Positions 4,163 through 60,027 of a stretch of DNA of 64,000 bases are shown one piece after another. The notes under the pieces are model-generated. The model saw only the letters and a program-made list of their open reading frames with translations, did no database searches and was not told the DNA's origin. The stretch comes from Candidatus Bathyarchaeia archaeon (GTDB lineage: Archaea; Thermoproteota; Bathyarchaeia; Bathyarchaeales; Bathycorpusculaceae): positions 192,001 to 256,000 of the forward strand of contig JBEKHN010000001.1 in the NCBI GenBank assembly GCA_050012255.1, given 5' to 3'. A program made the position numbers and the translations under genes. Each line of letters starts with the position of its first letter. The stretch's first letter is position 1.

Positions 4163-5257
4163 CTAGTCTTCTCTCCACTTGAATATTCTCGCTGCAGCTG
4201 CGAAGGCGACGATCGTGATTATCGAGACTACTATCAGGTCTATCGTTGCCTGTGCATAGTTGTTGTATATCATAACCCCGTTGAGTCCGTCGATGATATA
4301 GAAGAGGGGCAGGACATGTGCCAAGTATTGCAGATACGTGGGCATGAGCGAGATTGGGAAAAACGTGCCTGAGAGAAACATCATTGGGAAGGTTACGATG
4401 TTTCCGACGACGCTGGCTGTTTCGGTGCTCTTTGAGATGGTTCCCACCAGCATGCCCAGCGAAGCGAAGAACATCGGTCCAAGTATCAGGAACGGTATGA
4501 GCCACAGTGAGAGCGCAACATGTGCGCCGAAGGCGATGACCCCAACGGCAACCATCAATAGAAATGACGCCACTGACAGGAGAATATAGAAGAGTACTTT
4601 GGAGGCTAGCCACTCGATCTTGGTGAGAGGAGTCAAAGATAACTGTTTGAAAAGCTTTGTTCTCTTGTACTCGGAGGATATGTTCACTAGGGAAAACATC
4701 GGACTGATGAGTATTGAAAAGCCGATCAGGCCCGGAACGAGGAAATCGATGTATTTGGTCACCTGAGAATTGGCTGTAGTCTGAGTTATACCGATGATCG
4801 GTGAACCCCCCGCGCGCGCTAGGTTAAACCCGTTTACCACTCCGTTTACGGTTCCGCTCACGATGGCGCTGGAGCTTTGAGAAGGATTGCCATAGAGTGT
4901 CACGTTGACAGGCTTGCCGGTTGCGTAATTGGCCGAGAAATCTGGTGGAATGATTATCCCGTCGGACGCGGAATGAGCTGAGAGGTATTGAGAGAAGTCT
5001 TCAGAATTATTCACCAATACCAGGCTAACTGTGCCTGTCTTGGTAAGGTTGCCCAGGAAAAAGTTGGAGATTGGACCTGTGTCTTGGTTTTGAACGTAGA
5101 CCGTTATCGTCCCGGAAAAGCCTGACGAGAAAATAGCACCGAAAATAAGTATAAGAATCACTGGGAAAATCAGACCGAAGAACAATCCTGCCGCATTTCT
5201 CAGATATCCCCGGCCGAACAGGCGAAGGTCAGAAACGATTCTTCTTGCACTGGCCAT
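4163..5257 (-). CDS. ABC-2 type exporter permease
   Basis: N-terminal TM, extracellular loop, YIDFLVPGLIG, FLSGTFFP, multiple TMs. Confidence 0.9.
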   Translation of the reverse strand: MASARRIVSDLRLFGRGYLRNAAGLFFGLIFPVILILIFGAIFSSGFSGTITVYVQNQDTGPISNFFLGNLTKTGTVSLVLVNNSEDFSQYLSAHSASDGIIIPPDFSANYATGKPVNVTLYGNPSQSSSAIVSGTVNGVVNGFNLARAGGSPIIGITQTTANSQVTKYIDFLVPGLIGFSILISPMFSLVNISSEYKRTKLFKQLSLTPLTKIEWLASKVLFYILLSVASFLLMVAVGVIAFGAHVALSLWLIPFLILGPMFFASLGMLVGTISKSTETASVVGNIVTFPMMFLSGTFFPISLMPTYLQYLAHVLPLFYIIDGLNGVMIYNNYAQATIDLIVVSIITIVAFAAAARIFKWRED

Positions 5258-5262
5258 TCGTC

Positions 5263-6228
5263 CTAGCGCCTCCCCTGATCACGCGAATTTTCACCGGCAT
5301 TCTCAACTCTGATCTCGCCCTTCTCATCGATCCTTCCGCTTACAAGTTTGACAAACACGTCGTCCAAACTGTCACGGCGCGTGTGAAGGTCGCGCCATTC
5401 GAGTCCTGACCGCTCAACAGCTGTCAAGGCCGCTAGCGCATCATGCTTCTGACTGATCGGTATGCTGACCAAACCCTTGCCGTTGTACTCAGCCTTCAGC
5501 TTCGTGTTCGCCCTGACGTAGGCGGCCAACTCCTCTGTTCCATGGATTTCCAACCTTTCCCCCGAACCATGAGTTTCAATGATATCTTCAGAAGTTCCTA
5601 TAGCCACTATGCGCCCATGATCCATGATGGCAACCCTGTCGGAAAGCTGCTCAGCCTCATCGAGATAATGAGTAGTCAGAATCACCGTTCTGCCCTTACT
5701 CCTCAACCCTCTTATCACGTCCCAAATCGCTCTTCTCGCGTTCGGATCAAGCCCCGTGGTCGGTTCATCAAGGAAAAGAAGCTCAGCAGAATTCACGAGT
5801 GCGAGCGCAAGACCCAGCTTCTGCTTCTGCCCTCCTGAAAGATTTTCAAAAAGGGAATGTGCTGAATCGTCCAGTAAAACTTCTTTCAAAATCACATCTG
5901 GGTCGACGCTGACACCGAAAAGATCCGCGTAGTATTTCACCGCCTCTCTAGGGTTTGCTTTGTCAAAGAACGTAAAGTCTTGCGGTATCACTCCAATTCT
6001 CCTGTGAAGCGCGTAGCTGTTTCCCCACGGATCGAGACCGAGCACCTTCATCGTACCGTCGTCTCGTTTCCGCAGACCCTCCAAAATCTCTATCAGCGTT
6101 GTCTTACCAGCGCCGTTTGGGCCGAGAAGAGCGAAAACTTCGCCTTCGTTAACCGAAAAGGAAACTCCATCAACCGCCTTCACGTTGCCATACGATTTTT
6201 TCAGAGAAGAGATTTCAACCGGAATCAT
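5263..6228 (-). CDS. ABC transporter ATP-binding protein
   Basis: GPNGAGKTT Walker A, LSGGQKQ signature, LFLDEPTTGLD. Confidence 0.95.
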   Translation of the reverse strand: MIPVEISSLKKSYGNVKAVDGVSFSVNEGEVFALLGPNGAGKTTLIEILEGLRKRDDGTMKVLGLDPWGNSYALHRRIGVIPQDFTFFDKANPREAVKYYADLFGVSVDPDVILKEVLLDDSAHSLFENLSGGQKQKLGLALALVNSAELLFLDEPTTGLDPNARRAIWDVIRGLRSKGRTVILTTHYLDEAEQLSDRVAIMDHGRIVAIGTSEDIIETHGSGERLEIHGTEELAAYVRANTKLKAEYNGKGLVSIPISQKHDALAALTAVERSGLEWRDLHTRRDSLDDVFVKLVSGRIDEKGEIRVENAGENSRDQGRR

Positions 6229-6370
6229 TCGAAGTACAACCTCACTCAGCCATCCCCTTCACAGAATCTTTCGGAACTAGCATGGCCCATTGTGCGCAAC
6301 TGTTCTGCGTCAGGTTGTGTATTGTTGGAGATATAGTTTTTGGATGGCGGTTGTCAGTTTGTGACTATGT

Positions 6371-7240
6371 TTAGCTTCGATAGAAGTTTCTTGACGGTTT
6401 TACTGCTCTGCCGGTTTTGATGAAGGTGCCTTGATCAAGCTCTTGGAAGGCTTTTGCCAACTCCTCCTGAGTGTTCATAACGATAGGTCCCCCCCAAGCT
6501 ACAGGTTCTTTTAACGGCTTTCCTGATACAAACAAGAAGCGGATGCCACCTTCTGTTGTTATTCTGACGCTGTCGCCCTCACTGAACAAGGCACATTTTT
6601 GGGATTCGATCAGTTTGTCATCGAAATAGCCTGAACCCTTAATTACGTAGGCAAACACGTTGCTGTCCCTTTCCGTTGAGTGTTCGAACGTTTTGGAAGC
6701 AGCTAATTCCACATCGAAATAATCAACATCAACCACAAGATCTTGAACTGGCCCTTTAGTCCCATCGATTGTCCCCGCTATTACCTTGATCTCAGCTCCC
6801 TCTTTTTCCAGCACTGGAATTTGGTTTCCAGTGATTCCGCGGTATCTCGGGTCAATCATCTTTTTCTTTGCGGGCAGATTCACCCAAAGTTGGAATCCCT
6901 GCATCAAGCCCTCATATCTTCTAGGCATTTCCTGATGGATTATCCCTGACCCGGCAGTCATCCATTGAACGTCACCTGTTCTAATCAACCCACTGTTACC
7001 TATGCTGTCACCATGCTCAACTTGTCCACTCAGCATATAAGTGACAGTTTCAATCCCCCTATGAGGGTGCCATGGAAATCCCCTGATGTAGTCCTCAGGG
7101 TTTTCTGAACCAAAATTGTCCAGAAGCAAGAAGGGGTCAAACAGTGGAACCTCATTATAGCCAAAAACTCGCTTGAGTCTGACACCTGCGCCCTCTATCG
7201 TTGCCTTACTCTTCAGAATCTGCTTTACATTTCTTTTCAC
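6371..7240 (-). CDS. Pirin family protein
   Basis: DPFLLLD, GFPWHPHRGIETVTY, WMTAGSGIIHQE, QLWVNLP, GPIVMNT. Confidence 0.95.
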   Translation of the reverse strand: MKRNVKQILKSKATIEGAGVRLKRVFGYNEVPLFDPFLLLDNFGSENPEDYIRGFPWHPHRGIETVTYMLSGQVEHGDSIGNSGLIRTGDVQWMTAGSGIIHQEMPRRYEGLMQGFQLWVNLPAKKKMIDPRYRGITGNQIPVLEKEGAEIKVIAGTIDGTKGPVQDLVVDVDYFDVELAASKTFEHSTERDSNVFAYVIKGSGYFDDKLIESQKCALFSEGDSVRITTEGGIRFLFVSGKPLKEPVAWGGPIVMNTQEELAKAFQELDQGTFIKTGRAVKPSRNFYRS

Positions 7241-7674: not shown

Positions 7675-7989
7675 GCGCGCGCGCCAGCGCGTTCCTAAAT
7701 TCTTTCGGGAAGCAGCTTGCGCTACTCATTCTGCTCTTCAACCATATTTGGCTCCAAATATGCATGATACATTGAAACCGAGGAGGGGTACCAAAGGCCG
7801 CCCCACGTTCATGCGCATGAAAAGAAGACTCTGCTGCATCGCGGACAAATACAACGTTGGGTCACATAACATACCCGGGGGGGTGTGAGAGCAAGCAAGC
7901 ACCCAGCCAAACCGTGACGGTAACTATCGAGAAACGTCATGCCTTCCTCTTGAGCGGAATCTAGGAATTCAGGAACAAGCATAGGCGCT
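7675..7989 (+). mobile_element. MITE-like non-autonomous element, copy A (long form)
   Basis: Aligns by eye with the reverse complement of 58245-58450. Imperfect terminal inverted repeats (GCGC..GC..GTTCCTAAATTC / GAATTCAGGAACAAGCATAGGCGC). No coding capacity. Confidence 0.7.
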
Positions 7990-11720: not shown

Positions 11721-12086
11721 AGCCTTTCACAATTCCGTCACTAGACACTTCTTCGAAAATACTGTGAGTTATGGGATATAAGACTTAAGACCTTGTTGAC
11801 AGATGTTTGACCCGCAGCACTCGAGCAACGAGAACAGCTTTCCATCCTTTCATTGTACCTTCACAAAGGGGATGCCGCACGCTCACGTTAACATTGCCAG
11901 GTTGTCCACACGTGGCGCGACTGTTTTCTGAGTTTTGTTCCGAGAAAATGGATTTTAAGGCGCGCGCAGGCAGCGAGTCAAGGATTAAAGGTCAAACCGC
12001 ATTCTCTCAAGCGCGCAGTTGCGCCTCCAGTTGCGACTAATTTAAATAGCACCTACTCCTAAACGCCTAGGCAAGAGGTTAAGAAA

Positions 12087-22306: not shown

Positions 22307-22342
22307 CTAACCGAATTTTCCCGTGATGTATTTTTCCGTAAG
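22307..22342 (-). pseudogene. pstB: Last 11 codons of phosphate ABC ATPase pstB
   Basis: Reads LTEKYITGKFG-stop, the typical PstB C-terminus. It abuts the phoU start and is cut by the (GC)5 run at 22342. Confidence 0.8.
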
Positions 22343-22349
22343 CGCGCGC

Positions 22350-22714
22350 GCAAACAAGCGGAATGAAGAAACGAGAAGACTTCAGCTGACAGGCGGCTCA
22401 ACGTACGTAATCTCTCTACCCAAGAAATGGATAATTCAGAATCAACTGAAGAAGAGCAGTACGATTCTCGTACGTTCAGAAGACGACGGATCATTGTCAA
22501 TAATGCCGTCAGACTTGGCAAAACAAGAACCACTGCAAGAGGCCTACATCATGGTTTCTCCAAAGGACATGCCTGACCCGATAATACGGAAAACAGTTTC
22601 TGCCTACCTAGTCGGTTACAACACAGTGCACATCAAAGCCAAGGACGGACAGCAACTTTCTTCAAAGCAACGGAGTTCATTGAAGAGCTTTACGCGCGAC
22701 CTGCTCATGGGAAC
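22350..22714 (+). pseudogene. Archaeal AbrB-PhoU phosphate uptake regulator, truncated at both ends
   Basis: ETRRLQLTGGSTYVISLPKKW AbrB domain, SAYLVGY. Ends at LLMGT. (GC)n runs on both sides. Confidence 0.85.
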
Positions 22715-22848
22715 CGCGCGCGCTAAATTCGCGAAAACCTTGTTCACTTTTGCACTCATTGAGGACACTTGCGCTCTACTAACAAAGCCTCTTTCTGCCT
22801 TCAGGCGCATTTACGTTCCAGATCCACTCAACAGCATCAGCGCGCTCT

Positions 22849-23171
22849 CTAGTTGACGATCTTCTCAAGTTCTATGAGAAAATGTTCGTATTGCTTAATT
22901 CTGAGTCTCCAAAAGTCTACGTCGGCGATGTCAAGACCGACGATCTTGCCGATCTTCTGTGGAGAGATACTGCTGCCAACTGAAAGAATCCTCTTGAGTT
23001 TGGGAACAAACTCTCTGCCTTCTTCCAGGTATTTCTGATAGAGAGCATAGACGAACAGTTGGGCATAAACGTATGGATAATTGTAGAATCTTCGCGCGCT
23101 GAGGAGTCTGTGGTGCTCGGAAAAATCTCAGACAGGTCCCAGGCAATGTCCCCTTTTGTCACATGAATCAT
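22849..23171 (-). pseudogene. pepF: Oligoendopeptidase F (M3B) with its interior deleted
   Basis: N-terminus WDLSEIFPS is joined at CGCGCGC (23093-23099), out of frame, to C-terminus RFYNYPYVYAQLFVYALYQKY...GSSISP...GLDI...FW. Confidence 0.85.
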
Positions 23172-35416: not shown

Positions 35417-35501
35417 TTTAGCCTAGGAACCCAGTTATTTAAAGCTAGCCAACTTTTCTGGTTGGTCTGTGTTTCTGGATTAAACGTAAAAAAAGAGGAG
35501 T

Positions 35502-35570
35502 TTAAGCCTTCCGCACCGCTATGCTGCCGTCGCTGTTCTTCTCCATTCGTAGAGACGTTCCGCACGTCCC
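35502..35570 (-). pseudogene. C-terminal remnant of a small (possibly Zn-ribbon) gene
   Basis: GTCGTSLRMEKNSDGSIAVRKA-stop followed by a T-rich terminator. The 5' part is replaced at CGCGCGCG 35570. Confidence 0.45.
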
Positions 35571-35689
35571 GCGCGCGAATCTTCGTGCGTTGCTGCGCAC
35601 ACTGTAAAACAACTACCAAACGAATAGAAGATTTCTCCACAAACCTTATCATTCCGTTAAACCAAACGTGATTAGGAGAAGGGGGAGGA

Positions 35690-37751
35690 GTGAGTACTAG
35701 CAAGATTCGCTGTAGTGCTCTTTTGCTTGTCTTTGTAATTCTGGTTTCAACCGTTTGTTTGCCTGTAACTGCTGCAAGCGCTACGGTGCAAAATATCGCT
35801 GTTACGAAGCTTATCGACGAACCCTACTATAAGAAGACATTGTTTGTAATAACAACTGACCAGACGACTTATCACATAATGGTTGAGGCCAACATCACAA
35901 CAGCGGGTAACGAGACTCTAATACAGCTCAGTGCAACCCTTTACAACCCGCAGAATGAGACAATCACAGCTTCTGCCCAAATACCTGACACTCTGACGGA
36001 TGCTCCTTATTACAGTGGACCGGTAGAAGCTTTTCACCTACACCTCGAAAAGTGGGTAGTTGATTTACTAAAATTCTGGCTTCCCATCGTCATAGTGGTG
36101 GCGCTCGTTGCTCAGGTTATTCTCATAGTTGAAGGCTATATCACGCAACCAGTTCTGGAACCTTTGAAAACGGTCCTTTTTGGCGGGCCTTTCATATACG
36201 CTTCCTTGCCGCAGGTTCTGTTGACACTGTTGCAAGACACAAACATATCAGACGGTTCATATGTATGTTCCTTATTGGCCACCTAGCCCTCATATCAATT
36301 TGATTCTGCAAAAATGTTACTTCATAGCCACAAGCTTGAACTGGTGGAGAATAAAGGAACAGGAAGTATATACTGACATACCTATTCCTTTCGACGGTGT
36401 CTGGCACATCGTATGGTTTACCTACTTTGTTGCTAAGTGGTGGAGTTCACGTCAACAATCTATTCCGCTACCGCCGACTGCTGAATTCGTGTGGAGACCA
36501 AACCAACCTGTCGTGAACGAAAATGTAAGTTTCACATCGACTAGTTTCGCTCCAAATGGAACGATTACAACTTATCAATGGTGGCTCGGAGATGGAAATC
36601 AAAAAACAGATATGAACTTCACGTATGTTTACAACAGTGCTGGCAACTACAACGTAACGCTAAAAGTGACAGATAACAATGGCCTTACTGGCAACGTTAC
36701 TCACACGGTAAGCGTGCAACCTTCAGTCGCAGCAACCTTGAGAGTTATTCCAGACCACTTACAGGTAAGCGTGCAAATAGGACAAAATGCAACTGCACAG
36801 TTTCTAGTAGGAGAAACTCTTAACCGATCGGACTTACTCGGTGTGAATTTCAAGGCATTTGATTTATCGAAAACTTTCGAGAATCAGATAATCTCTTCTG
36901 GGAACGTGACCTTCAATAGGAATGGGATTAATGTGACGAAAGGAACCTATACGAATGTGACTGCAACGTTCCAAGCACCGTCAGATTCATCATTAGGGTG
37001 GTATTCTGGAAACATTACAGCCACAAGCACAAACGGAGGAAACAGCACAATCTTTGCTGACTTATTCGTTTATGGTCCACCTGTTGCAAACTTCACTTGG
37101 AATCCACTAACACCAAAAGTCGGAGAAGTGGCAACATTTGACGCGGCATCATCAATACCTAGCGGTGGTTCCATCGTGGATTACGAATGGAACTTTGGAG
37201 ACGGTCACACGGCATCTGGACAAACAACAGTGCACACTTATACAACTGCAACAATCTACACGGTAACACTAAACGTTACAGATAGCAATGGTCTGTGGAA
37301 CACTACGCAAGAGCAAGTGCAAGTAGTCCAGCCACACGGTCCAAAAGCAGAATTTACTGTAGTTCCTGAAACCGCAAGTATCGGCCAACTCGTGAAGTTT
37401 GATGCTACAAGTTCTCAGCCAGGATGGAATGGCACGAACCAAATGCCAATTACCAAATACAGTTGGGACTTCGGAGACGGAAACAATACTAACACAACCG
37501 CTCCGATAATATCTCACTCCTTCAGTAGTTCAGGGATATATTACCCAACTCTGACCGTCTACGCAAGCGGAGCTACACCAGAAACCGACACGATAACACA
37601 GAGAGTGCTCATCATTTCAACACCGGTTGGAGGCTACTCAGTTTCTATAAAAGGATACAACACGGCGTTGCCATCGTCTTTCTATCTCGCAACATTAATA
37701 CTGCTATCAGCCGTTTTCACAGGAATCAGACGCAAGAGACGAAGGAAATAA
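35690..37751 (+). pseudogene. Secreted PKD-domain surface protein, frameshifted near 36260
   Basis: Signal-peptide ORF 35690-36286 overlaps ORF 36261-37751, which has three PKD repeats (WxFGDG) and a C-terminal PVGG-TM-RRKRR anchor. Confidence 0.75.
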
Positions 37752-38135
37752 TACAAGCTCAAACGGTCAAGATGCTTCTTGACCACTTGTTCCGTCGCGC
37801 CCGCGCTTTTGCCACAAGAGGCGCACATTGAGTTCGCGCGCGCGATGCCTACGTCAAAGAGATAATGGCCGCGGGGTTGGATAAGCTTACGAACCTGATA
37901 AGGATCTGCGGTTTCTTGATGCAGAAAGGTGTACCTTTTCTGGAGAAAAGAGAATCGACTCTTCTTTCCAAGATTCTCGTGAGCTTTCCATAACTGGTTT
38001 TCAATTTTCATGTTAAAACTGCCTGGCCTGCGTGGACTTCGCTTATTTACGACGTTTTTTCTCTCTTAGTCGAAAGCTTTCGAAGCTGGCAAACGTACAT
38101 AGGTTTGAAGAATCAAGATTCATCCGCGTGATAGT

Positions 38136-38504
38136 ATGAGCAAGTCAGTTGGAAAAAACTCAACGGGCCCCGAGGCGGGTTATGAGAACCGCTTCATGGC
38201 TTTGGAAGAGATTGAATTGCTTCTTAGATCCAGACACGTAAAGCTGGAAGATTTGTTTGATGTTCTAGGGAATTCAGATGATGGCTGCCTGGATTTCAAC
38301 ATTGGAGACATTGCAATCCAGTTTGTGCGCGGTTTTGGTGTTTGGTCTGATAGAAGAGACGTGATTCAAGTAACAGCTGAGCTGCTAGCCACAGCCAAGA
38401 AAGGCAATGTAAGTGAAATGGTGGGCTATGAATATACATTTGATGAGCTCAGAAGATTGCGTTCGGAGAAACTCGCAAAGATTGAATGTTCAGGAGAAGA
38501 GTGA
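38136..38504 (+). CDS. Hypothetical protein
   Basis: ATG-start 122-aa ORF whose stop abuts the next ATG. Confidence 0.6.
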   Translation: MSKSVGKNSTGPEAGYENRFMALEEIELLLRSRHVKLEDLFDVLGNSDDGCLDFNIGDIAIQFVRGFGVWSDRRDVIQVTAELLATAKKGNVSEMVGYEYTFDELRRLRSEKLAKIECSGEE

Positions 38505-38690
38505 ATGAGAGAAAACTACATGGTTGAAAAAGACAAGATTGTCCGTACCAACCCTTTCTGTCCAAGATGCGGCGAAGGAGTCTTCATGGCAGACAAAGGT
38601 GAATGGTGGTCATGTGGAAAATGCGGAGACAGATATAGCAAAAAAACCATTAAAGTTCATAAATACAAAGTGAATACCTGCGGCCAGTGA
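38505..38690 (+). CDS. Ribosomal protein S27ae (eS31)-like Zn-ribbon paralogue
   Basis: Y.VE.DKIVR.NPFCPRCGEGVFMA....WSCGKCG matches the eS31 pattern. Confidence 0.75.
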   Translation: MRENYMVEKDKIVRTNPFCPRCGEGVFMADKGEWWSCGKCGDRYSKKTIKVHKYKVNTCGQ

Positions 38691-39622
38691 GCTTTCAGAA
38701 GGAATATGACTGTATGAAGAACGAATGTAGAAAAGCATTATTGATTACGATAGCAGTTGATACAAGTTCAGCCAAGGGCAAAGGAAAATACGTACCTAAT
38801 TTCAACGGTGGATTTAGAGGACCGTTCTGGGGAAAGGGAGAGGAATTCGAATATATACCCATCCCTGAGACGATGATGGGGCAGCGGTCGGACAAGAAGT
38901 GGGAGTGGAAAGGCAAATATGTCGAAGGCGGGAAAGCCACCTACAAAACTGCACTAGGCAACAGATCAAAGACAAATATCCTCACTTACGTCCCTGCGGA
39001 ACTCCGAGCAAATCTTGAGCACGCAGCAATACATTATGATCCAGATTTCAAGAATCTAACCTACGGGGATGGCAAAAAGGAAACTCCTAGAGGGAAGCAA
39101 TTGGCCAAACTCAACCCAGGTGATCTCTTAGTCTTCTGCCCATCTTTGGAAAACCCTGAGACAAGAGAACCTGACCGTGGTCGTTTCATAATCGGCTCCT
39201 TTACCGTGGAATGTGCCTACGACTTTACAAATGCTGAATTCGAAAAGCGATTCAAATGCACCCGCTCTGATGTTGTTGAGAAATACAAGAATAAGAACGC
39301 GCATTTTTCAGAAGAATTCGCGCGCGCGTGGGATTGTAGTCGGAAAGAGCTTCTCGAGAGCTATGACGACAAAGAAGAAGCAGACCTTGTGCTTGTGGCC
39401 GGCATAGAAAAGGAGAGTGGTCTGTTTGAAAATGCCATCAGGATAACGCGACCGCATGACGGCAAGTATTTTGTCATGCCGAAGGATCTTGTTGGAGATC
39501 TTGGCCTGAAAAAGCCGCCCGGACCGCTAAAATATGAAAGAGGATGGAAGTGGGTGAAAGGCGATCAATATCTTAGAAATCTTCACAATCTGTTGAAGAA
39601 AGGTGGAGACTTCGTCAAATGA
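38687..39622 (+). CDS. Nmad3-like (nucleotide modification associated domain) protein
   Basis: FEYIPIPE, HYDPDF..LTYGD, L.PGDLLVF, KNAH motifs recalled for this family. Confidence 0.65.
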   Translation: MSFQKEYDCMKNECRKALLITIAVDTSSAKGKGKYVPNFNGGFRGPFWGKGEEFEYIPIPETMMGQRSDKKWEWKGKYVEGGKATYKTALGNRSKTNILTYVPAELRANLEHAAIHYDPDFKNLTYGDGKKETPRGKQLAKLNPGDLLVFCPSLENPETREPDRGRFIIGSFTVECAYDFTNAEFEKRFKCTRSDVVEKYKNKNAHFSEEFARAWDCSRKELLESYDDKEEADLVLVAGIEKESGLFENAIRITRPHDGKYFVMPKDLVGDLGLKKPPGPLKYERGWKWVKGDQYLRNLHNLLKKGGDFVK

Positions 39623-39838
39623 TATGTTTAGTCAAACCATTGCGAGGAAGCGCACCTAGGCCCGCAGTCCTGAGTGGAAAAAAGGGATTTGCAGGAGACA
39701 TCACCACCGGCCATGGGGTGCAAACCCTTTGCTGACCATTTTCAGTCCACAGCTGAAGCAGATACAAATCTTGCACGTTGGGCAGTAGTTGGCGCCTTGA
39801 ATACGATTGCCGCACACACCTCTGAGCTTGAGGGAAAT

Positions 39839-40291
39839 TTATCTTCTATGTCCCGCACAATATGGACAACGGTCTATTGATTCATTGTACAAATTACCAC
39901 AGAATTGGCATCTTATTTTCACAATCTCTCTAACGATTTCCGTTTCTCTAACTATTGAACGTTTTTCTTCCAAATCTGCTCTTCCTTCAAAAGCAAGTTT
40001 AGACCAAAACTCTGGCTCATGCTCTATCCCAAGATGTTCTCTACCTTTGCCACCATGACTCTCTTTCTCAAGTTTCGCCCATCTCAAGCCACCAGTGAAG
40101 CCAAAGTAAACGTGCCATGAGGCACCACATCTGGAACAAATTGCATAGTCTTTCCCACCGACACTGTGAACTTTGCATCTGACGGCATTTCCCATGTAGC
40201 ACAATGGGCAGTATCTAAAAAACGTCGAAATAGCTCGTCTCTTCTCCCTTTTTGCTCTTTCCAATGCATAATAACCGTAACTATAACCCAT
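39839..40291 (-). CDS. Double Zn-ribbon hypothetical protein
   Basis: CPLC/CSRC and C-terminal EIVKIRCQFCG...CPYCAG. Confidence 0.7.
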   Translation of the reverse strand: MGYSYGYYALERAKREKRRAISTFFRYCPLCYMGNAVRCKVHSVGGKDYAICSRCGASWHVYFGFTGGLRWAKLEKESHGGKGREHLGIEHEPEFWSKLAFEGRADLEEKRSIVRETEIVREIVKIRCQFCGNLYNESIDRCPYCAGHRR

Positions 40292-40492
40292 CTTTCTCCT
40301 CCTCAAAAGGAATAGAGTCAAACCAAATTATAAGTTTTGACTATTCAAAGAGCGCGCGCTAAATAGCGCGGTACGTCCCACTTTTTTCCCTGTCTTCGGT
40401 ACTAGATCGCGCGCGCATAAAGATTTAAACTGCACATTCCACAGGCCGTTAGCGGATATGTCTGTTAGAAAACGCCCAGAATACGGGAATAT

Positions 40493-43334: not shown

Positions 43335-44039
43335 TCTAGAATTCTCTCCGTGTCACTTAAACTTTCGCATCATAGGAGGGGCTGTTTTTTTGGGTTTGGG
43401 GGTAAAGGTTTGTTTCTTTCTGCATATGATTTTTACCGATACAGTCTATCGTTAGCGTTGAATTTTATACTAAGCCCTAGGACGCGGTGTTCCAGAAGTT
43501 AGAACGGTCGCATTAACCATACGCGGGCGGCTTCGTACTAGAAGATTGTCGTGACGATGGCTCCTCAATTCTGGCAATGGAGAGTCCAGAATGTTCCGTT
43601 ACGGTTCTATCTGTGGCTTGTACCAATCGCTGTATTCTGGATTGGACGACTGGAAGAAGGACCAAAGCATCTGAAAGATAGGTGAAAGCGCGCGCTGAGA
43701 AACGACACACATCGTTGCAGCAATGCTCAGAATCATTTCTGCGAAGGCATCGCATAAGAGTCTAAAAAAGGATTGACCCACGAAGTCTGGATGATCGGAT
43801 AAAGTTTTAACCCCAAACCCAAAACCCTTGCTTGTATATTATAATGTAATATGGCGCGCGTGGCAATTCTGGGAATTGTTTGCCATTAACTTGTAACAGT
43901 TCACAAGCAATCCAAGAGGTAAAGAACAACATGGAAGAGAAAAGAACTTGGTAAAAAGACCATTCATTTTGCAGTATTGGACTATTATAAAATGAGAGAA
44001 AGGAAGACTGGGGCAATTGGATAGGCCAAAGCCACGCCT

Positions 44040-44765: not shown

Positions 44766-44834
44766 TTGACATCGCTCTCCATGTTTTCTGTCTCTCCCTT
44801 TTTATAATTTGTGCCCACGTCTAAGCGCGCGCGC

Positions 44835-45528
44835 TTGTTTTGAGCAAAATTGAAGGGCAAAACCAAGTCTTAAAAAAATACGGTTTGAAGCGTCACGACT
44901 TCTCAGTTATGCAAAAAGTGAAAAGTCTTGAAGATGAGGATTCAGCCAAGCTCAGAGTCAGGTTGATGAGTATTGAAGGTCATGCTTCTGACAGATACTT
45001 CAATCAGATATTCGGTTTGATTCCTGAATTGATTAGACCTGAATACAGGAAGACTTTCAAGGCTTATGATGGTTTGAATAACATTTTCAACTTGGCCTAT
45101 GAAATGCTGTCGTGGAAAGTGCATCATGCTTTGATTAAGGCTAAGCTTGAACCCTACCTTGGTTTTCTGCATAGCATTGCTGAGGGTAAGCCTAGTCTAA
45201 TCTGTGACTTCATGGAGCTTTACCGTTATCTTGTTGATGACTTTGTTATTGAGTATTGTCAAAGACTTCAGAAGCGAGACTTCATAATGAAGAATGAGGA
45301 CTTTTCAACGAGCCGAAAGGGAAAGAGGGAATACCTCAACGATTCTCTGACGCACAGTCTAATCAGAGGCTTGAACGAATACTTCCAGACCAAAGTCGGG
45401 ATTCCAGAATTAGAATGGGAAAGGAACAGGAAATTGAGACGTTAATCAATGAAGAGGCTTTGCTGTTGGCTATGTATTTGAGGAATGCAAAGCAAACTTG
45501 GATTCCCAGAATTGCAAACCTTTGCTAG
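44835..45528 (+). pseudogene. cas1: Solo Cas1 (casposase-like), 5'-truncated and frameshifted
   Basis: LMSIEG..S.RYF, NNIFNLAYEML, LEPYLGFLH, SLICDFMELYR. A 1-nt frameshift near 45405 is followed by IRMGKEQEIETLINEEALLLAMYLR...WIPRI. The N-terminal domain is missing from the (GC)5 run at 44825. Confidence 0.88.
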
Positions 45529-56504: not shown

Positions 56505-57839
56505 ATGCAGAAGACGAGAGTTATTATAATGGGCGCGGCTGGTAGGGACTTCCATAACTTTAACGTCTACTTCAGAAACAACGATGCTTATGAGGTTGTA
56601 GCTTTCACGGCAACGCAGATTCCTGGGATAGGAGGGAGAAACTATCCGCCGGAGCTTGCAGGTTCAAGATATCCAGACGGTATACCAATATACCAAGAGG
56701 AAGAATTGCCTAAGCTGATAAGAGACTACGATGTTGACCAGGTTGTTTTTGCGTATAGTGACGTTTCGCATGAATACGTTATGCACAAGGCTTCCATTGC
56801 GCTTGCAAACGGCGCAGACTTTCGGTTGATGGGCCCGAAGACGACAATGCTAAAAGCAAAAGTGCCAGTGATTGCCGTCTGCGCGGTCAGGACTGGATCA
56901 GGAAAGAGTCAAACTTCACGGCAAGTTGCCAAGATTCTGAAGAGTAAGGGTTTGAATGTTGTAGCAATCAGGCATCCGATGCCTTATGGAGACCTGACGA
57001 AGCAAATCTGTGAACGCTTTGCCTCTTATGAGGATCTGGACAGGTATGACTGCACGATTGAGGAGAGAGAGGAGTATGAGCCACACATCGACAACGGCAT
57101 AATTGTCTACGCTGGAGTTGACTACGAAAAAATACTGCGCGAGGCAGAGGAAGAAGCAGACGTGATAGTTTGGGATGGCGGCAACAATGACTTGTCCTTC
57201 TACAAGCCAGATCTGTGCATTGTTGTGGCTGACCCTCATAGAGCTGGTCATGAACTGGCTTACCATCCTGGTGAGGCAAATCTGCGGATGGCCAACGTGA
57301 TAATAATTAACAAGGTTGACACCGCTGACCCGCAGAAAGTGAAGCTAGTCAAAGAAAACATCAAGCTAGTCAATCCAAACGCAACAGTCTTGGAAGCTGC
57401 TTCACCGATAACCGCTGACAACCCAGAGGCTGTCAGGGGCAAACGTGCGTTGGTGATTGAGGATGGACCTACGATCACTCATGGGAACATGCCCTACGGA
57501 GCTGGAGTGATATTTGCGCAGAAGTTCGGAGCAGGTGCAATCGTCGATCCGAGGCCCTACGCTGTGGGCTCAATTAAGGAAGCATATGAAAAGTACAGGC
57601 ATCTGGGCGCGGTGCTTCCCGCGCTGGGCTACGGTGGAAAACAGATAGCTGAACTCAAAGAAACCATTGACCGCACTCCATGTGATGTTGTGGTGATCGG
57701 CACACCCATAGATTTGAGAAGGGTGATAACTATCAAGCAGCCAACGGTGAGAGTCAAGTATGAACTCAAAGTTTTAGGGCCCGTTTCGCTTGAGCACGTC
57801 TTGGAAGAGTTCATTGAAAGAAGTGTGAAAAGGCAATGA
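56505..57839 (+). CDS. COG2403 P-loop NTPase (often annotated cDPG synthetase; arginine synthetase ArcE-like)
   Basis: GAAGRDFHNFN, RTGSGKSQT, RHPMPYG, EEREEYEPH, WDGGNND, EDGPT.THG. Confidence 0.75.
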   Translation: MQKTRVIIMGAAGRDFHNFNVYFRNNDAYEVVAFTATQIPGIGGRNYPPELAGSRYPDGIPIYQEEELPKLIRDYDVDQVVFAYSDVSHEYVMHKASIALANGADFRLMGPKTTMLKAKVPVIAVCAVRTGSGKSQTSRQVAKILKSKGLNVVAIRHPMPYGDLTKQICERFASYEDLDRYDCTIEEREEYEPHIDNGIIVYAGVDYEKILREAEEEADVIVWDGGNNDLSFYKPDLCIVVADPHRAGHELAYHPGEANLRMANVIIINKVDTADPQKVKLVKENIKLVNPNATVLEAASPITADNPEAVRGKRALVIEDGPTITHGNMPYGAGVIFAQKFGAGAIVDPRPYAVGSIKEAYEKYRHLGAVLPALGYGGKQIAELKETIDRTPCDVVVIGTPIDLRRVITIKQPTVRVKYELKVLGPVSLEHVLEEFIERSVKRQ

Positions 57840-58243
57840 GTGAAGAGAAAAGTCAAGAGAAAAGTGAAGAGAAAGGAGAAGTCTCTCGTGTAAAAGTGAA
57901 GTTCACGGTTGAAGGGATGGGCGAAACCGAAGGAGAGCTTGTGCGTTTCTTGGCTCCGAGAACGATAGATATGATAGTTCGGAGACTACCGATAGAAGGA
58001 AGAGCTGCCCTGTGGAAGGAAGAGGTGTACTTTGAAACTCCTGTCAAGATGGGCGAAGAAAAGGCTAAGGCCACTGTCGAAACTGGGACGATCGCGTTCT
58101 GGCCCATGGGAAGCGCAATATGCATCTTCCACGGAAAATCGCAGCCCTACAGCCCGGTGAACATCATTGGAAAGGTAACCGGCGATCTTGAGCTGTTCAG
58201 GCAGGTCAAGAGTGGGACAAAAATAAGAGTTGAAAGTCTCTAG
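57836..58243 (+). CDS. Cyclophilin-like fold protein (DUF369/TM1367 type)
   Basis: LPIEGRAALW.EEVYF, G.IAFWP.G.AICIF, SPVNIIG. Confidence 0.85.
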   Translation: MSEEKSQEKSEEKGEVSRVKVKFTVEGMGETEGELVRFLAPRTIDMIVRRLPIEGRAALWKEEVYFETPVKMGEEKAKATVETGTIAFWPMGSAICIFHGKSQPYSPVNIIGKVTGDLELFRQVKSGTKIRVESL

Positions 58244-58244
58244 T

Positions 58245-58450
58245 AGCGCGCATGCTTGTTCCGAAATTCCTAGATTCCGCTCAAGAGGAAAGGCATGATG
58301 TTTCTCTATGGTTACTGTCACGGTTCAGCTGGGTGCTTGCGTGCTCACACCCTCCCCCCGGTATCCTATATGAGCCAAATATGATTGAAGAGCAGAATAA
58401 GCAGCACAAGCCACTTCCCAAAAGAATTCAGGAACATGCTAGCGCGCGCG
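58245..58450 (-). mobile_element. MITE-like element, copy B (short form)
   Basis: Reverse complement matches 7675-7989 minus a ~100-bp interior. TIRs GCGCGCATGCTTGTTCCGAAATTC / GAATTCAGGAACATGCTAGCGCGC. Confidence 0.7.
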
Positions 58451-58747: not shown

Positions 58748-59071
58748 GTGGCTAGATTTTTCAACTTGTGGCGCGTGAATCCGTCGGCACCATGGCCTAC
58801 AGACCCTTCTAAGCTCTTAGAACTCCACGAAATGATATGGGCAACCATGGATGGACTGATAAAGAAGGGCGAGATTGAAGAGTGGGGGATTTTCCCAGAT
58901 GCGCACGTTGGATACGCAATCGGCAAAGGGGAAACTGTAGATGTCTATAGAAACGTGAGCATGTTCTATCCTTACTTTGTCTCTGAGGTACATGAGATCA
59001 TATCATACGAGAAAAACAAAGAAATTATAAGAACAGTTCTAAAAGCTCGAATCGCAGCAATGAAGAAGTAA
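58748..59071 (+). CDS. Hypothetical protein (ferredoxin-like/DUF3303-type small protein)
   Basis: GGAGG SD, GTG start, upstream TTTAAATA box, T-rich terminator. Confidence 0.7.
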   Translation: MARFFNLWRVNPSAPWPTDPSKLLELHEMIWATMDGLIKKGEIEEWGIFPDAHVGYAIGKGETVDVYRNVSMFYPYFVSEVHEIISYEKNKEIIRTVLKARIAAMKK

Positions 59072-59164
59072 GCCTTCATCCCCTTAGATCATATTCTTCT
59101 TTTTTCATAGCAAGTCTTTATTCTTCCATTTTGAGATGTGCTAGTAATTCAGGAAAATCTTCCA

Positions 59165-59389
59165 TCATTCAAGCCCCGAAGAGTTAACAGAACCCTTGGC
59201 TATATGCATGCACATCAATACATGAATGAAGGTAAGGCCAAAAAAGAAGAATCCTGTGGGAGCGTAAAATGCGCTCAAGTAACTGAGAGAAAGTTCAAGG
59301 AAAAAAGCCAGTACGGCACTAATTATCAACAAACCTTCAATTGCCCATACATGTTTACCGTAGACTATCAAGAATTTACTGATTCTCAA
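59165..59389 (-). CDS. Small two-TM membrane protein
   Basis: Two hydrophobic segments. Confidence 0.4.
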   Translation of the reverse strand: MRISKFLIVYGKHVWAIEGLLIISAVLAFFLELSLSYLSAFYAPTGFFFFGLTFIHVLMCMHIAKGSVNSSGLE

Positions 59390-59529
59390 TTTCGCTTTCC
59401 CAATATGTTCATATCAAAGCGCTTGAAGCTAAAGTTTTTATCCAATAGGTTTTTCGCGTTCTCCGTTTAGAAAATATCTTATGAGCATGGAATTTAATAG
59501 GCGATATATGAAAAGCTGATCCTAGCGCG

Positions 59530-60027
59530 CTAGTAAACCAGGGAGCTTTCTTTCCACATTTTTAGAAGCTTCTGGCATTCTTCTGCTACTTCTTTTTCGC
59601 GCGTCTTGCTCTTCAAAGCTTCGAGGAACTCTATTCGTTTCTCATTTGAACGCTTTTCCGCTGCTCCTCCATAGTAGAGTTCTCCCTCAAGATACTCCTT
59701 CATGCTGTTGGCTTTCTGCACGAAGACGCTGGCCGCGTCAACCGAATTTTCAACAGCATATTCATTTGCCCACACAGCCACTTCTGCCTGTCGGAGCTGC
59801 GTCAGACCGTCAATCTGTTTTATGCTGCGTACGTACGTTCTGAGAAAATCGTAATAGCCGGCGGTCTTGACGAGAGCCAATGCTTTTCTGACTTTCTGCC
59901 TGAAGGCTGCACTTCCTCTGATCCCTATGCGGTGCTTGTATCCCCTGTCGATTAGCGCTCTGGCCTGTCTGACTTCTTCTTCCGTGTAGACTCGTGTGGG
60001 GAAATCCAAGGAAATCTTGACCCTCAA
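59530..60027 (-). CDS. Hypothetical protein
   Basis: 165-aa ORF downstream of rps25e on the same strand. Confidence 0.75.
   Translation of the reverse strand: MRVKISLDFPTRVYTEEEVRQARALIDRGYKHRIGIRGSAAFRQKVRKALALVKTAGYYDFLRTYVRSIKQIDGLTQLRQAEVAVWANEYAVENSVDAASVFVQKANSMKEYLEGELYYGGAAEKRSNEKRIEFLEALKSKTREKEVAEECQKLLKMWKESSLVY

Follow-up and report, generated by a model that had tools for sequence, protein, structure and literature searches.

An alternating-GC palindrome at deletion and rearrangement junctions in Bathyarchaeia genomes: a candidate scar of DNA end joining

The palindrome HIP1 is the closest described system to the element treated here. According to PMC5861425, HIP1 is conserved between genomes and present in every reading frame of genes, and it is also reported there as the insertion site of a small repeat; for high-frequency HIPs, PMC4390886 describes an accompanying cognate methyltransferase. 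In contrast, the eight-letter alternating-GC site analysed here (GC8, core palindrome GCGCGCGC) is mostly non-coding and not conserved. The initial annotation of this DNA had likewise set HIP1, as a fixed octamer, against a junction filler of variable length, which was right in spirit, but the GC element is itself a fixed unit.

The window is a stretch of 64,000 nt of Candidatus Bathyarchaeia archaeon (GCA_050012255.1, JBEKHN010000001.1, 192,001-256,000, forward strand). It was analysed together with its whole genome (G000, ~2.35 Mb in the Markov counts) and further genomes, most of them metagenome-assembled, including a complete single-contig congener of ~93% identity (G001). All 13 runs of at least 8 nt and all ten runs of 6-7 nt that had been listed for the window were found, and it holds 42 runs of at least 6 nt. 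Using Markov backgrounds of orders 0-3, GCGCGCGC is expected ~1-1.5 times per 64 kb, in line with the earlier estimate of about one, and 25-31 times in the whole of G000, where it is in strong excess (434 observed) and is the most abundant 8-mer. Runs of at least 8 nt number 393 genome-wide, or 10.7 per 64 kb, and the window is typical of the whole genome as to GC runs. Outside a crude ORF-based gene model covering 79% of the genome (hereafter non-coding), 371 copies of GCGCGCGC were counted versus 5.3 expected at order 1 and 60.7 at order 3; by the same model, 322 of 368 sites (~87%) lie outside genes. Site density is anticorrelated with GC content (rho -0.34) and coding density (rho -0.49), and sites cluster in variable islands: over intervals of 5 kb the variance-to-mean ratio is 2.3 and the maximum is 9 sites. 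Nearly all runs are in variable, non-coding DNA of low GC content. The two core blocks described as free of runs indeed have none of at least 8 nt (22724-35569 and 44835-58441), but seven 6-nt runs lie there.

Run lengths in G000 stop sharply at 10 nt (7 nt, 171; 8 nt, 201; 9 nt, 123; 10 nt, 63; 11 nt, 2; 12 nt, 2), and the G001 histogram has the same shape. By our own arithmetic, random flanks would give 12.6 11-mers in G000 against the 2 found (P = 3e-4). GCGCGCGC makes up 176 of the 201 octamers, as against the CGCGCGCG form in the remainder, and (GC)5 makes up 55 of the 63 decamers; an A...T flank is present at only about half of the GC8 sites, the flanks being otherwise not conserved. We take the motif for a fixed unit of (GC)4 or (GC)5, often flanked by A...T, and not for a run that varies freely.

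When G000 was compared with G001, 100 of 382 GC8 sites lay exactly at a homology break, as did 134 of the 455 G001 sites. Breaks coincided with 30 of 1000 random non-coding positions (Fisher P = 5e-35 vs GC8 sites), 30 of 600 GC-rich non-coding 8-mers, 27 of 600 non-coding GCGC tetramers and 76 of 242 non-coding 6-nt runs (GC6). Only 19 of the 382 sites are kept between the two genomes, and 87 of 101 block ends between genomes are without a GC run. At about three quarters of one-sided breaks the opposite genome has no GC run (63/82 and 73/99), while at about a quarter it also has one of at least 6 nt (19/82 and 26/99).

In 32 two-sided collinear events, a GC run stands in place of a block of 63-3289 bp kept by the other genome (X block); in small replacements, ~8-20 nt are exchanged for the run. 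Filler of 2-39 nt was present in 28 of the 32 events and an overlap instead of filler in 4; these overlaps, together with the quarter of one-sided breaks with a run in both genomes, fit a reuse of existing sites. Where the flanks end in GC, CGC or GCGC, just 2-8 nt are added, yet the run is still 8-10 nt, so that the constrained quantity is the total run length and not the inserted part. X-block boundaries usually lack GCGC, which for most events contradicts the earlier proposal of GCGC cleavage followed by fill-in. Since X boundaries lie within long ORFs in only 8 of 32 events, versus 69% of random positions, polarity (deletion or insertion of X) is not proven for most of them. A third genome placed 11 events, ~4 of these ambiguously: it also has the X blocks of C2:65894 and G001:1768846, and at G001:1550262 an overlapping deletion arose independently in G007. 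Moreover, a 400-aa ORF is broken off in G001 within its C-terminal dockerin-like repeats (read by eye, not Pfam). Given the gene truncations and the third-genome comparisons, several runs are deletion scars. The run lies at the exact end of collinearity, is usually absent where no rearrangement occurred, truncates genes and is not conserved. These comparisons support, for the whole genome, the view already put forward in the initial annotation that runs mark deletion and rearrangement junctions and are largely new sequence rather than earlier microhomology, the GC run being usually missing at the intact breakpoint.

The features of the window are collected in Table 1. The ORF with scars at 22342 and 22715 is a remnant, the longer gene running beyond the break in G001 and G007. 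The flanks of the 22342 run are ~4.1 kb apart in G001 (127420/123330) and ~4.0 kb in G007 (134200/130164), as HSPs in the compared stretches; at 22715 the left flank matches at 95% identity as far as the run, and the right flank lies 1034 bp further on in G007. Of the recognisable genes said to be cut by runs, this ORF and cas1 were confirmed, whereas the supposed pstB cut at 4811 falls in an intact permease, cuts in pepF and CDGSH found no Pfam support, and the Zn-ribbon ORF (39839-40321) ends 31 nt short of the run at 40352. No Pfam family was above threshold in 15 frames adjoining other runs. The span around 4811 is conserved, with the run kept in G001 and an in-frame replacement relative to G007, which has 19 other nt there; the run at 11960 is among the few sites conserved in congeners.

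Table 1. Alternating-GC runs and associated features in the 64-kb window (window coordinates)
Feature	Position	Strand	Context	Remarks
CGCGCGCGC	4811..4819		in intact ABC-2 permease ORF 4166-5278 (minus strand)	PF12698 profile 3-346 of 347
(GC)5	7675..7684		adjoins IS/MITE-type terminus, TIR match 7679-7701 (G000:C1:199679-199701)	one-sided homology break
GCGCGCGC	11960..11967		span conserved	GCGCGCGC in G001, GCGCGCAC in G007
AbrB/MazE-domain ORF	22311..22853	+	scars at 22342 and 22715	PF04014, residues 25-67
(GC)5 deletion scar	22342..22351		homology block end exactly C1:214342	
CGCGCGCGC deletion scar, then TAA	22715..22723			~1.03 kb of G007 missing in G000
G000-only block, ~4.98 kb	35443..40417		between DHH-family gene and rpS15	TAAAG (5 nt) at both edges
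CGCGCGCG	35570..35577		within 4.98-kb block	one-sided break
(CG)5	37835..37844		within 4.98-kb block	multicopy repeat of ~100 nt (37845-37955) directly after
(CG)5	39319..39328		in Nmad3-domain ORF 38663-39619	
GCGCGCGC	40352..40359			end point of homology with other strains' contigs
CGCGCGCGC	40408..40416			right junction of 4.98-kb block
GCGCGCGC	43688..43695			surrounding DNA without homologue at same place in G001 or G007
(GC)5	44825..44834			exact truncation point of cas1 remnant
cas1 remnant	44825..45442	+		PF01867 profile 101-279 of 283; ~first 100 profile positions lost
MITE, ~205 bp	58246..58450		GCGCGC-ATGCTTGTTCC...GGAACATGCTA-GCGCGCGCG	right-hand run is the 58442 run

The 4.98-kb block, whose right edge bears a GC run, carries a PKD-domain protein, the Nmad3 protein and the Zn-ribbon ORF. 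Three independent samples (X2, X3 and X4) have contigs without it, in which 35439 is joined to 40418, and the DHH-family gene and rpS15 are adjacent in G007, G003, G009 and G008. A second X1 contig departs at 35540 into AGCGCGCG..., an X2 contig follows 39786-40357 before it diverges, and an X3 contig links 40360 to 43382 via 28 other letters. The repeat at 37845-37955 has matches at several places in G003, G007 and G009; a homologue of the 39319 run was not found in G001 or G007. The MITE has 26 HSPs elsewhere in G000, and its empty site in G007 reads ...CTAGTA GCGTGCGTGC AAGC....

The best reading of these data is that GC8 is a de novo junction filler of an end-joining process for which no enzyme was found. 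We give even odds to the view that it is a scar, written at a break when two ends that share no homology are joined. The fuller scar unit would be A-(GC)4-T, less often with (GC)5, and it would be left by deletions, insertions of foreign DNA and rearrangements alike. Each 3' end may be extended with alternating G and C, often after one A (this account of the A...T flank is a guess), and such an extension, being self-complementary, would allow any two ends to pair. Short GC duplexes would slip and be re-extended by 2-nt steps until stable at ~8-10 bp, whereupon the nick could be sealed. Slippage and re-extension to a stable duplex would bring the total to 8-10 nt whether the old ends gave 0, 2, 3 or 4 letters, and 2-nt steps would yield (GC)4 and (GC)5 products with runs of at least 11 nt almost absent. 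The constraint on total rather than insert length makes self-complementary GC tailing, one of the mechanisms first proposed, the best fit among them. The scars would then drift, roughly neutrally, and in some species an IS5-like IS and its MITEs insert specifically into them. A palindrome at points of deletion, insertion and rearrangement suggests that broken DNA is sealed in a way not yet described; we know of no polymerase that adds alternating GC at DNA ends.

GC8 is in excess in 10 of 10 congeners and, patchily, in several further families within the class; several lineages of this one archaeal class have genomes with hundreds of copies. In four distant genomes AGCGCGCGCT occurs 83-131 times versus 0-2 for the control, some sites being near contig ends. 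A complete LigD-polymerase/Ku/ligase-phosphoesterase operon is present in the genus, where it could carry out the joining. Across the class, however, Ku (matched in 73 of 301 genomes) does not track GC8: no match was found in ten GC8-rich genomes (G107, G115, G113, G314, G235, G142, G104, G262, G318 and G173), and 25 Ku-positive f35 genomes have merely 4-26 GC8 sites, so that Ku/LigD was rejected as class-wide determinant. Nor do C5 methylase, RT, PolX, PrimPol or RAYT track the motif. Among 31 genomes, RT was detected in none and C5 methyltransferase in only 3, the latter not in the complete G001 with its 464 GC8 sites; searches of G000 gave neither PolX nor PrimPol, and a Y1/RAYT transposase was found in none of the six GC8-rich genomes searched.

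It is unlikely that the runs are instead remains of GC-ended IS5-like IS or MITE copies, left by excision or internal deletion, and that the deletions are adjacent deletions made by a transposase before its element was lost. A family with GCGCGC ends, as had been supposed, does exist. It comprises an IS5-like IS of ~1.1 kb, which encodes a DDE_Tnp_1 transposase, and MITEs (~45 copies in G000, ~29 in G001). An occupied site has the form GC6-element-GC6, and the other genome shows GC8, or a sequence close to it, at that place. The MITEs are tied to breakpoints as strongly as GC8 is (the two genomes share just 7 of 74), GC6 runs also stand at breaks, several G000 contigs end within IS copies, and a patchy distribution over the class would be in keeping with a mobile agent. 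However, TIR ends do not track GC8 sites (2 vs 359 in G009, 0 vs 254 in G008, 0 vs 128 in G004), a relaxed terminus matched 0-3 times in each of ten GC8-rich genomes, five from other genera or families, and G023 has a close transposase homologue with 3 GC8 sites. Only 22 of 786 run flanks belong to any repeat family, an abundant IS was looked for and not found, and the clean 8-10 nt insertions expected from insert-excise cycles are rare (~2-4 of 52 spanned sites). For six MITEs the orthologous region has only a short gap (4-6 of these cases are interpretable); the site there is 8 nt and GC8-like and never GCGC alone, which is what GC8 as the target would predict. The family was therefore set aside as source of GC8: it uses the sites and does not make them, its insertion duplicating the central GCGC (4 bp) of an empty GC8.

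Alternatively, a pre-existing GC8 might be fragile or recombinogenic (Z-DNA, cruciform, site-specific nuclease or recombinase) and survive at the new junction, which we consider quite improbable. The one-sided breaks with a run in both genomes are consistent with this, as are G001:1138516 (right boundary near-identical in G001 and G007, left boundaries 61 nt apart, run in both), C5:77181 (CACGCGC at both X ends) and cas1, whose remnant in the X2 contig starts at 45306 after ...GTCGCGCGCG, 481 bp further in than in G000 and again with a run at the junction. Against it, the unrearranged genome lacks the run in about three quarters of cases, which contradicts the pre-existing Z-DNA hotspot first suggested, 25 of 32 X blocks have no GC8, and ~400 sites at 14-70 times expectation and the 8-10 nt length cap are left unexplained.

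A HIP1-like palindrome, arising from point substitutions under a methylation-linked repair bias and maintained by selection for a chromosome-level function, is very improbable. GC8 is a GC-rich octameric palindrome in lineage-specific, 14-17-fold genome-wide excess, 12 of the 33 spanned sites scored as 'changed' show a single substitution, and its use by MITEs recalls the repeat insertion reported for HIP1; its location and poor conservation largely refute this explanation, and the scarcity of C5 methyltransferase also speaks against it.

Scarcely credible is a cassette/integrase system with GC8 as integron-like crossover core, or a REP/RAYT-type repeat: palindromy and clustering in variable islands would suit either, but under conservative site-specific recombination a site on both insert sides and at the empty locus is predicted, and the junction anatomy contradicts this, with at least two GC8 in only ~4 of 32 X blocks and none at the empty DHH-rpS15 site. 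Moreover, attC and REP are far longer than an 8-mer, GC8 has no conserved flanks, and RAYT was not found in the six genomes noted above. An assembly, binning or library artefact, conceivable with metagenome assemblies and sites near contig ends, has a negligible probability, since the complete G001 and all ten congeners have the same pattern, assembly k-mer sizes far exceed 8 nt, and an independent Logan contig of 12.7 kb shows 0 differences over 11.5 kb, while three other samples show the same pattern, with GC runs at other break points.

The alternating-GC runs are best read as scars written de novo at the joining of non-homologous ends. The core idea of the initial annotation, that they mark junctions, is supported, and several of its details had to be corrected. 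All 13 runs of at least 8 nt and all ten runs of 6–7 nt that it had read from the window were found in place, and neither of the two blocks that it called 'core' holds a run of at least 8 nt. Across the source genome (G000; 2.35 Mb in 38 contigs, the window being C1:192001-256000), 393 runs of at least 8 nt occur, or 10.7 per 64 kb, and the window is not exceptional in run density. The run lengths are not geometrically distributed (4 nt, 7854; 5 nt, 1735; 6 nt, 517; 7 nt, 171; 8 nt, 201; 9 nt, 123; 10 nt, 63; 11 nt, 2; 12 nt, 2; 14 nt, 1; 16 nt, 1), and no other alternating dinucleotide of G000 shows such a pattern. The octamers read GCGCGCGC rather than CGCGCGCG in 176 of 201 cases and the decamers read (GC)5 in 55 of 63; the unit is therefore the palindrome (GC)4 and, less often, (GC)5.

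The word GCGCGCGC, hereafter GC8, is the commonest 8-mer of G000, with 434 occurrences against 25–31 expected under Markov orders 0–3, so that the enrichment over background suspected from the window holds genome-wide. GC8 is preceded by A (position -1) in 49% of cases and followed by T (position +1) in 43%, and AGCGCGCGCT occurs 74 times in G000, against once for its reversed control. By our own calculation, 12.6 runs of 11 nt would be expected if random flanks extended a fixed octamer, and only 2 were seen (P=3e-4). A different palindrome, CCCTAGGG, is about twofold over-represented in G000 under an order-6 model (68 versus 34 counted on both strands, hence ~34 sites versus 17).

Using a crude ORF-based gene model that covers 79% of G000, we found 322 of 368 sites (87%) to be non-coding; 46 lie inside the model, and 25 of these fall in the outermost tenth of an ORF at either end. 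Non-coding DNA alone holds 371 copies of GCGCGCGC versus 5.3 expected at order 1, higher Markov orders absorbing the motif itself. The sites cluster (variance-to-mean ratio 2.3 per 5 kb) and grow sparser as GC content (rho -0.34) or coding density (rho -0.49) rises. They show no preferred distance to gene starts or stops and every gene orientation is represented, which rules out a promoter or terminator element at a fixed gene position. Moreover, only 22 of 786 flanks anchored at a run belong to any repeat family; the runs are thus solitary, and the termini of a multicopy element are ruled out as their general source.

The runs coincide with breaks of homology between related genomes. For this comparison we used a complete congener of ~93% identity (G001; 464 sites, with the same truncated length histogram) and 600 kb of a third genome (G007), each G000 or G001 run being classified against the other of these two genomes with 300-nt flanks and a break being scored when it fell within 8 nt of the run. 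Among 382 G000 runs, 100 lie at a break (82 one-sided, 18 two-sided), 19 are spanned and conserved, 33 are spanned and changed, 115 have no homology and 115 are of other kinds; the 455 G001 runs gave 134, 20, 23, 138 and 140 in the same classes, without division of the breaks. Random non-coding positions (n=1000) gave 30 breaks, 506 spanned positions of all kinds, 243 without homology and 221 others. The excess of breaks at runs over these positions is highly significant (Fisher P=5e-35), and matched controls behave like random positions, with breaks at 30 of 600 GC-rich non-coding 8-mers and at 27 of 600 non-coding GCGC tetramers. Sorted by length, non-coding runs lie at breaks in 76/242 (GC6), 19/110 (GC7), 50/195 (GC8), 33/119 (GC9) and 17/68 (GC10 or longer) cases; given the first two figures, the remark that runs of 6–7 nt also stand at segment borders holds too.

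Only 52 of the 382 G000 runs are spanned in G001, against 506/1000 controls, and only ~5% of sites (19/382 in G000, 20/455 in G001) are conserved at ~93% identity; at least ~330 of 382 evaluable G000 sites are not kept in G001. At 63/82 and 73/99 one-sided breaks the corresponding place in the other genome is free of GC runs, so the runs are mostly new, as had been proposed, rather than pre-existing microhomology. The 33 changed sites comprise, by our own count, 12 with one substitution, 7 with two and 14 with at least three substitutions or indels; the last look like very small replacements (GCGCGCGCG versus GTTCAGGCG) or clean indels. Clean indels number ~2–4 among the 52 spanned sites, e.g., C5:7002 (8 nt) and C3:19943 (15 nt) on G000 contigs. 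Conversely, when the ends of long homology blocks were taken as the starting point, a run in either genome was found within 10 bp of 14 of the 101, compared with ~2% of random non-coding positions per genome; the majority of block ends have no run.

The anatomy of the junctions was resolved at 53 two-sided breaks. In 21 of these the flanks lie far apart or on other contigs, and in 32 they are collinear, the other genome holding a block of 63–3289 bp where the run stands. Such blocks lack any GC8 in 25 of 32 events, and ~4 of 32 have IS/MITE-type ends. Exact decomposition revealed added letters in 28 of 32 events (2–39 nt, median ~10) and overlaps of 1–7 nt in the other 4, three of which are of the type with terminal inverted repeats (TIRs). 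Typical fillers are AGCGCGCGCT, AGCGCGCGCGG, GCGCGCGC, AGCGCGCGCA and CGCGCGCTAG. Where the old ends already finish in GC, CGC or GCGC, only 2–8 nt are added and the run still measures 8–10 nt (e.g., tgcatcgc+GC+gcgctgag; aacgtaag+CGC+gcgcgatt; gaaagcgc+GCGCGCTA+aaac), indicating that the total run length is constrained rather than the insert. It should be noted that the decomposition sampled only runs of at least 8 nt; the genome-wide histogram independently shows a preference for 8–10 nt. The edges of the replaced blocks (first and last 8 nt) mostly lack GCGC, e.g., CCATGCTT...TCACGACA and GATGGTGA...CTGTTTGT, and a minority carry GC, CGC or GCGC at one edge. Breakpoints are thus mostly not at recognition sites, contrary to the suggestion that cleavage at GCGC or GCGCGC followed by fill-in made the runs.

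Gene integrity shows, in several cases, that the scar-bearing genome suffered a deletion. The cas1 remnant matches its profile only from position 101 (of 283) onward, with the cut exactly at window 44825, as first read; an ORF with an AbrB/MazE domain is cut at 22715, where G001 and G007 read on; and the flanks of run 22342 are separated by 4.1 kb in G001 and by 4.0 kb in G007. A 400-aa G000 ORF with C-terminal dockerin-like repeats (our own reading of the sequence) is cut within the repeats in G001, and a 300-aa membrane ORF is interrupted after 100 residues. Cuts had also been claimed in pepF and CDGSH, and Pfam found neither in 15 frames beside runs. ORF continuity was dropped as a general polarity test: only 8 of 32 block boundaries lie within long ORFs, compared with 69% of random positions, and few events were settled; most events thus start and end between genes, and these may be either deletions or insertions of the block.

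Eleven events could be placed on G007. The block is common to two genomes at C2:65894 and G001:1768846, and these are therefore deletions with a scar. At G001:1550262 a deletion in G007 overlaps and has different bounds; at C2:86879 and G001:1435565 a TIR-ended element is inserted into a pre-existing run; ~4 of the 11 are ambiguous. At G001:1138516 both G001 and G007 carry runs, with nearly the same right edge and left edges 61 nt apart. Perhaps about a quarter of events arose where a run already stood, which persisted while deletions progressed from it.

Runs mark insertion junctions too. A 4.98-kb block between the DHH gene and rpS15 is missing from G007 and from the further congeners G003, G009 and G008, and contigs of three independent samples join 35439 to 40418 without it. 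Its right end reads ...GATCGCGCGCGCA|TAAAG. Where the block is missing, the DHH-rpS15 site is free of runs, and the block itself carries a run at only one edge; with the 25 of 32 replaced blocks that lack GC8, this argues against an integron-like cassette site.

How such scars might be written is suggested by the constant self-complementary sequence, the 2-nt steps of the products and the limit on total length: both 3' ends would be extended with alternating G and C. Slippage would then continue until a stable duplex of 8–10 bp forms, after which the joint would be sealed; the A...T flank might, at a guess, stem from a first untemplated A on each 3' end. We tentatively suggest, while leaning slightly against the proposal taken as a whole, that several lineages of the class have an undescribed break-sealing pathway that writes a constant A-(GC)4-T at every junction that it makes, that its enzyme is something other than Ku/LigD, PolX, PrimPol or a reverse transcriptase, that it drives accessory gene loss and that an IS5-like family evolved to home on its scars. 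The enzyme may be a core protein with a new activity (e.g., the replicative primase) or a protein of unknown family.

Excision of transposons offers another source of short palindromes, and transposon footprints account for a minority of events. A Tc1/mariner-type excision footprint consists of the duplicated target plus a few terminal nucleotides; like GC8, it is short and palindromic, has a fixed size and is flanked by A/T-containing sequence. Unlike such footprints, the runs replace unique host DNA (32 events), clean footprint insertions are rare (~2–4/52) and GC8 abounds in genomes with 0–3 such termini; neither a footprint nor a solo terminus is likely to explain the runs in general.

One transposon family appears to insert specifically into GC8 sites. 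Miniature elements (MITEs) of 150–350 bp number ~45 in G000 and ~29 in G001, with inverted ends GCGCGC-WWGC-NTGTTCCTAAATT that also occur at window 7679-7701. The parent element, which shares these ends and was found via PF01609, is an IS5-like IS of ~1.1 kb with a two-ORF DDE_Tnp_1 transposase; its copy number is underestimated, since several G000 contigs end inside copies. Filled sites read GC6-element-GC6 (e.g., C3:43050, G001:430607, G001:256990 and the MITE of the window). The empty site of the latter in G007 reads ...TAGTA GCGTGCGTGC AAGC..., and wherever a MITE had an orthologous site that could be interpreted, as only a few did, that site in the other genome was GC8 or an 8-nt near match, never bare GCGC. 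This fits insertion of the element into GC8 with a putative duplication of the central GCGC (4 bp); a 4-bp duplication is usual for IS5-group elements. Filled and empty alleles are also expected of a footprint, and targeting fits them equally well. The runs cannot stem from this family, because G000 has 106 TIR ends and G001 has 75, but there are 2, 0 and 0 in the congeners G009, G008 and G004, whose GC8 counts are 359, 254 and 128; because a relaxed terminus pattern gave 0–3 matches in each of ten GC8-rich genomes; and because the transposase shows no association, being present in 6/12 GC8-rich and 5/19 GC8-poor relatives, which also dismisses a specific transposase as the determinant of GC8. 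TIR pairs 1.5–1.65 kb apart bracket ordinary host genes and are ruled out as autonomous elements, and self-BLAST for abundant IS elements gave only 2–3-copy repeats. A second small repeat family adjoins GC runs at G000 C12:11219, C1:159576, C2:95436, C3:116594, C34:2791 and other places, with tandem TTTTGCATATACG on one side and, on the other, a MITE-type end (...AATTTAGGGACAAGCCAGCGCGC), then TGATA, then the run.

Features located in the window and in the genomes compared
Feature	Location	Content or remark
tRNA gene	window 3942-4026	sole Rfam match in the window
4.98-kb block	window 35443-40417	PKD protein, Nmad3, Zn-ribbon ORF
MITE, ~205 bp	window 58246-58450	GCGCGC-ATGCTTGTTCC...GGAACATGCTA-GCGCGCGCG
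IS copy	G001:389080-390159	
IS copy	G001:1671432-1672550 (intact)	
IS copy, degenerate	G000 C24:15248-16332	
IS copy	G003 L161:1056-2180	
IS copy	G009 L162	left end
NHEJ locus	G001 L078:17178-19999	
LigD_Prim-Pol	G001 L078:17178-17921	NHEJ operon
Ku	G001 L078:17997-18842	NHEJ operon
Ligase + LigD_N	G001 L078, from 18839	NHEJ operon
NHEJ locus	G001 L079:1 onward	
Ku	G000 C10:12429-12968	

Ku/LigD end joining in bacteria and polymerase-theta joining in eukaryotes likewise leave extra nucleotides at non-homologous junctions with deletions of any size, use short microhomology and require no repeat, and the junctions fit Ku/LigD-type joining in anatomy (28 of 32 with fillers of 2–39 nt, 4 with overlaps of 1–7 nt). 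Known end-joining fillers are one to a few nucleotides or are copied from nearby sequence, and so vary between junctions, whereas here the same self-complementary word, fixed in total length, turns up at hundreds of places. Ku is present in 8/11 genomes of the genus (the three misses being 65–89% complete) versus 1/20 others; this match looked decisive but amounts to one evolutionary event. Overall, 73 of 301 genomes of the class have Ku, more than we expected for archaea. Ten GC8-rich genomes have no Ku, and the Ku-positive groups f35 (25 genomes, 4–26 sites) and g23 (9 genomes) show no excess, which excludes Ku/LigD as the class-wide determinant. G001, an archaeon, thus has a complete NHEJ operon: it encodes a LigD primase-polymerase, Ku and a ligase of the ATP-dependent kind to which the 3'-phosphoesterase of LigD is fused.

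All 10 congeners carry 29–464 sites, and eight other genera of the family 0–14. The GC8 excess recurs across the class in Ku-negative genomes, at ~2:1 over the reversed word: 601/339 (G107), 373/122 (G115), 346/169 (G314), 325/133 (G113), 300/158 (G142), 262/160 (G235), 180/95 (G318), 165/86 (G104), 158/85 (G262) and 120/32 (G173). In four distant genomes AGCGCGCGCT occurs 83–131 times versus 0–2 for the control, so an A-(GC)4-T-type unit is made in several families. The feature is real and strong, genome-wide and class-wide, and its patchy distribution makes the genetic basis testable by association. The initial annotation had looked to candidate genes that might follow the excess; the excess proved patchy over the class, and Ku, PolX, PrimPol, reverse transcriptase, C5 methylase and transposase do not track it. 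G000 gave no match to PolX or PrimPol, which are set aside, and reverse transcriptase (RVT_1) and DDE_3 were found in 0/31 genomes. C5 methylase (PF00145; C5 class only) occurs in only 3/31 genomes and is absent from G001. G000 itself has two intact C5 cytosine methyltransferase genes (C7:4931-5887 and C6:37304-38281) with no counterpart in the complete G001, probably strain-specific restriction-modification systems.

The cyanobacterial palindrome HIP1 (GCGATCGC), whose origin is said to have been open for 30 years and which reportedly bounds a deletion at the Synechococcus smt locus, had been named as the nearest analogy. The likeness stands for abundance: HIP1, the alternate cyanobacterial palindromes and GC8 are all GC-rich octameric palindromes in many-fold excess, lineage specific and the top word (here 434 versus 25–31). 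It fails for conservation (19/382) and presence within genes (46/368): GC8 is 87% non-coding, ~5% conserved and found at homology breaks. No C5 methylase co-occurs with it. One account describes HIP1 as conserved from genome to genome, as present in coding sequence in all three frames and as presumably under selection, and reports that it serves as an insertion site for a small dispersed repeat (PMC5861425). Highly iterated palindromes are accompanied by cognate methyltransferases, according to another (PMC4390886). GC8 would be a second hyper-abundant palindrome beside HIP1, mechanistically different from it.

REP palindromes are 20–40 nt long. IS1397 and other IS elements target these short, abundant intergenic palindromes as a safe haven, according to one report (PMC1525189), and the family described here resembles them in its specificity for such a target. 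It differs in that the target is an 8-mer scar, the transposase is of the DDE_Tnp_1 (IS4/IS5) type and the apparent duplication is 4 bp; a transposon family specialised on a hyper-abundant palindrome comes to light. A REP/REPIN system with its RAYT is dismissed, as no Y1_Tnp/RAYT gene (PF01797) was found in any of six GC8-rich genomes searched (G000, G001, G007, G009, G008, G107). In the open-access literature we found no description of a GCGCGCGC excess in archaea or of constant fillers at prokaryotic junctions. Should the runs prove to be repair scars, sequence alone would let one count and date deletions and captures of DNA in uncultured archaea and measure genome reduction directly, each genome recording hundreds of past deletions, foreign-DNA captures and rearrangements. 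A self-complementary filler that never varies would make any two ends compatible; this would be a principle new to end joining and of interest as a tool.

An assembly artefact is ruled out by three observations. A 12.7-kb Logan contig from the probable source sample spans 34000-45472 with 0 differences; contigs of other samples break or diverge at runs (40357/40360; 35540 into AGCGCGCG...; ...GTCGCGCGCG|45306 inside cas1); and G001 is complete in a single contig. The sample comparison used contigs only, the uncovered parts being uninformative.

Other features of the variable region were noted. Contigs of two samples (X3 and X4) join 43796 to 46007, omitting 2210 bp that include the cas1 remnant and run 44825, and a high-depth contig of sample X1 joins 43824 to 46004; these boundaries have no run of at least 8 nt. 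A 26–37-nt element at window 45995-46033 recurs with 88–100% identity at several places in G007, G008, G009 and G003, and the X3 contig depth reaches ~970 in the surrounding bin 45726-46176. No CRISPR array or direct repeats were found in 43.5–47.2 kb; the element may be what is left of a CRISPR repeat next to the remnant of cas1. Window 46667-46900 holds a repeat of ~190–230 nt with dozens of copies in G001 and G007 (71–93% identity), with raised contig depth in all four samples and no flanking run of at least 8 nt. The ORF at 41462-41956 matches the PNP_UDP_1 phosphorylase profile at positions 73–202 of 233 only, has no run of at least 8 nt at its ends and is possibly another truncated gene of this region. 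Short multicopy repeats with matches in several congeners lie at 39727-39817 (~90 nt) and at 37845-37955 (~100 nt), the latter beginning directly after run 37835-37844.
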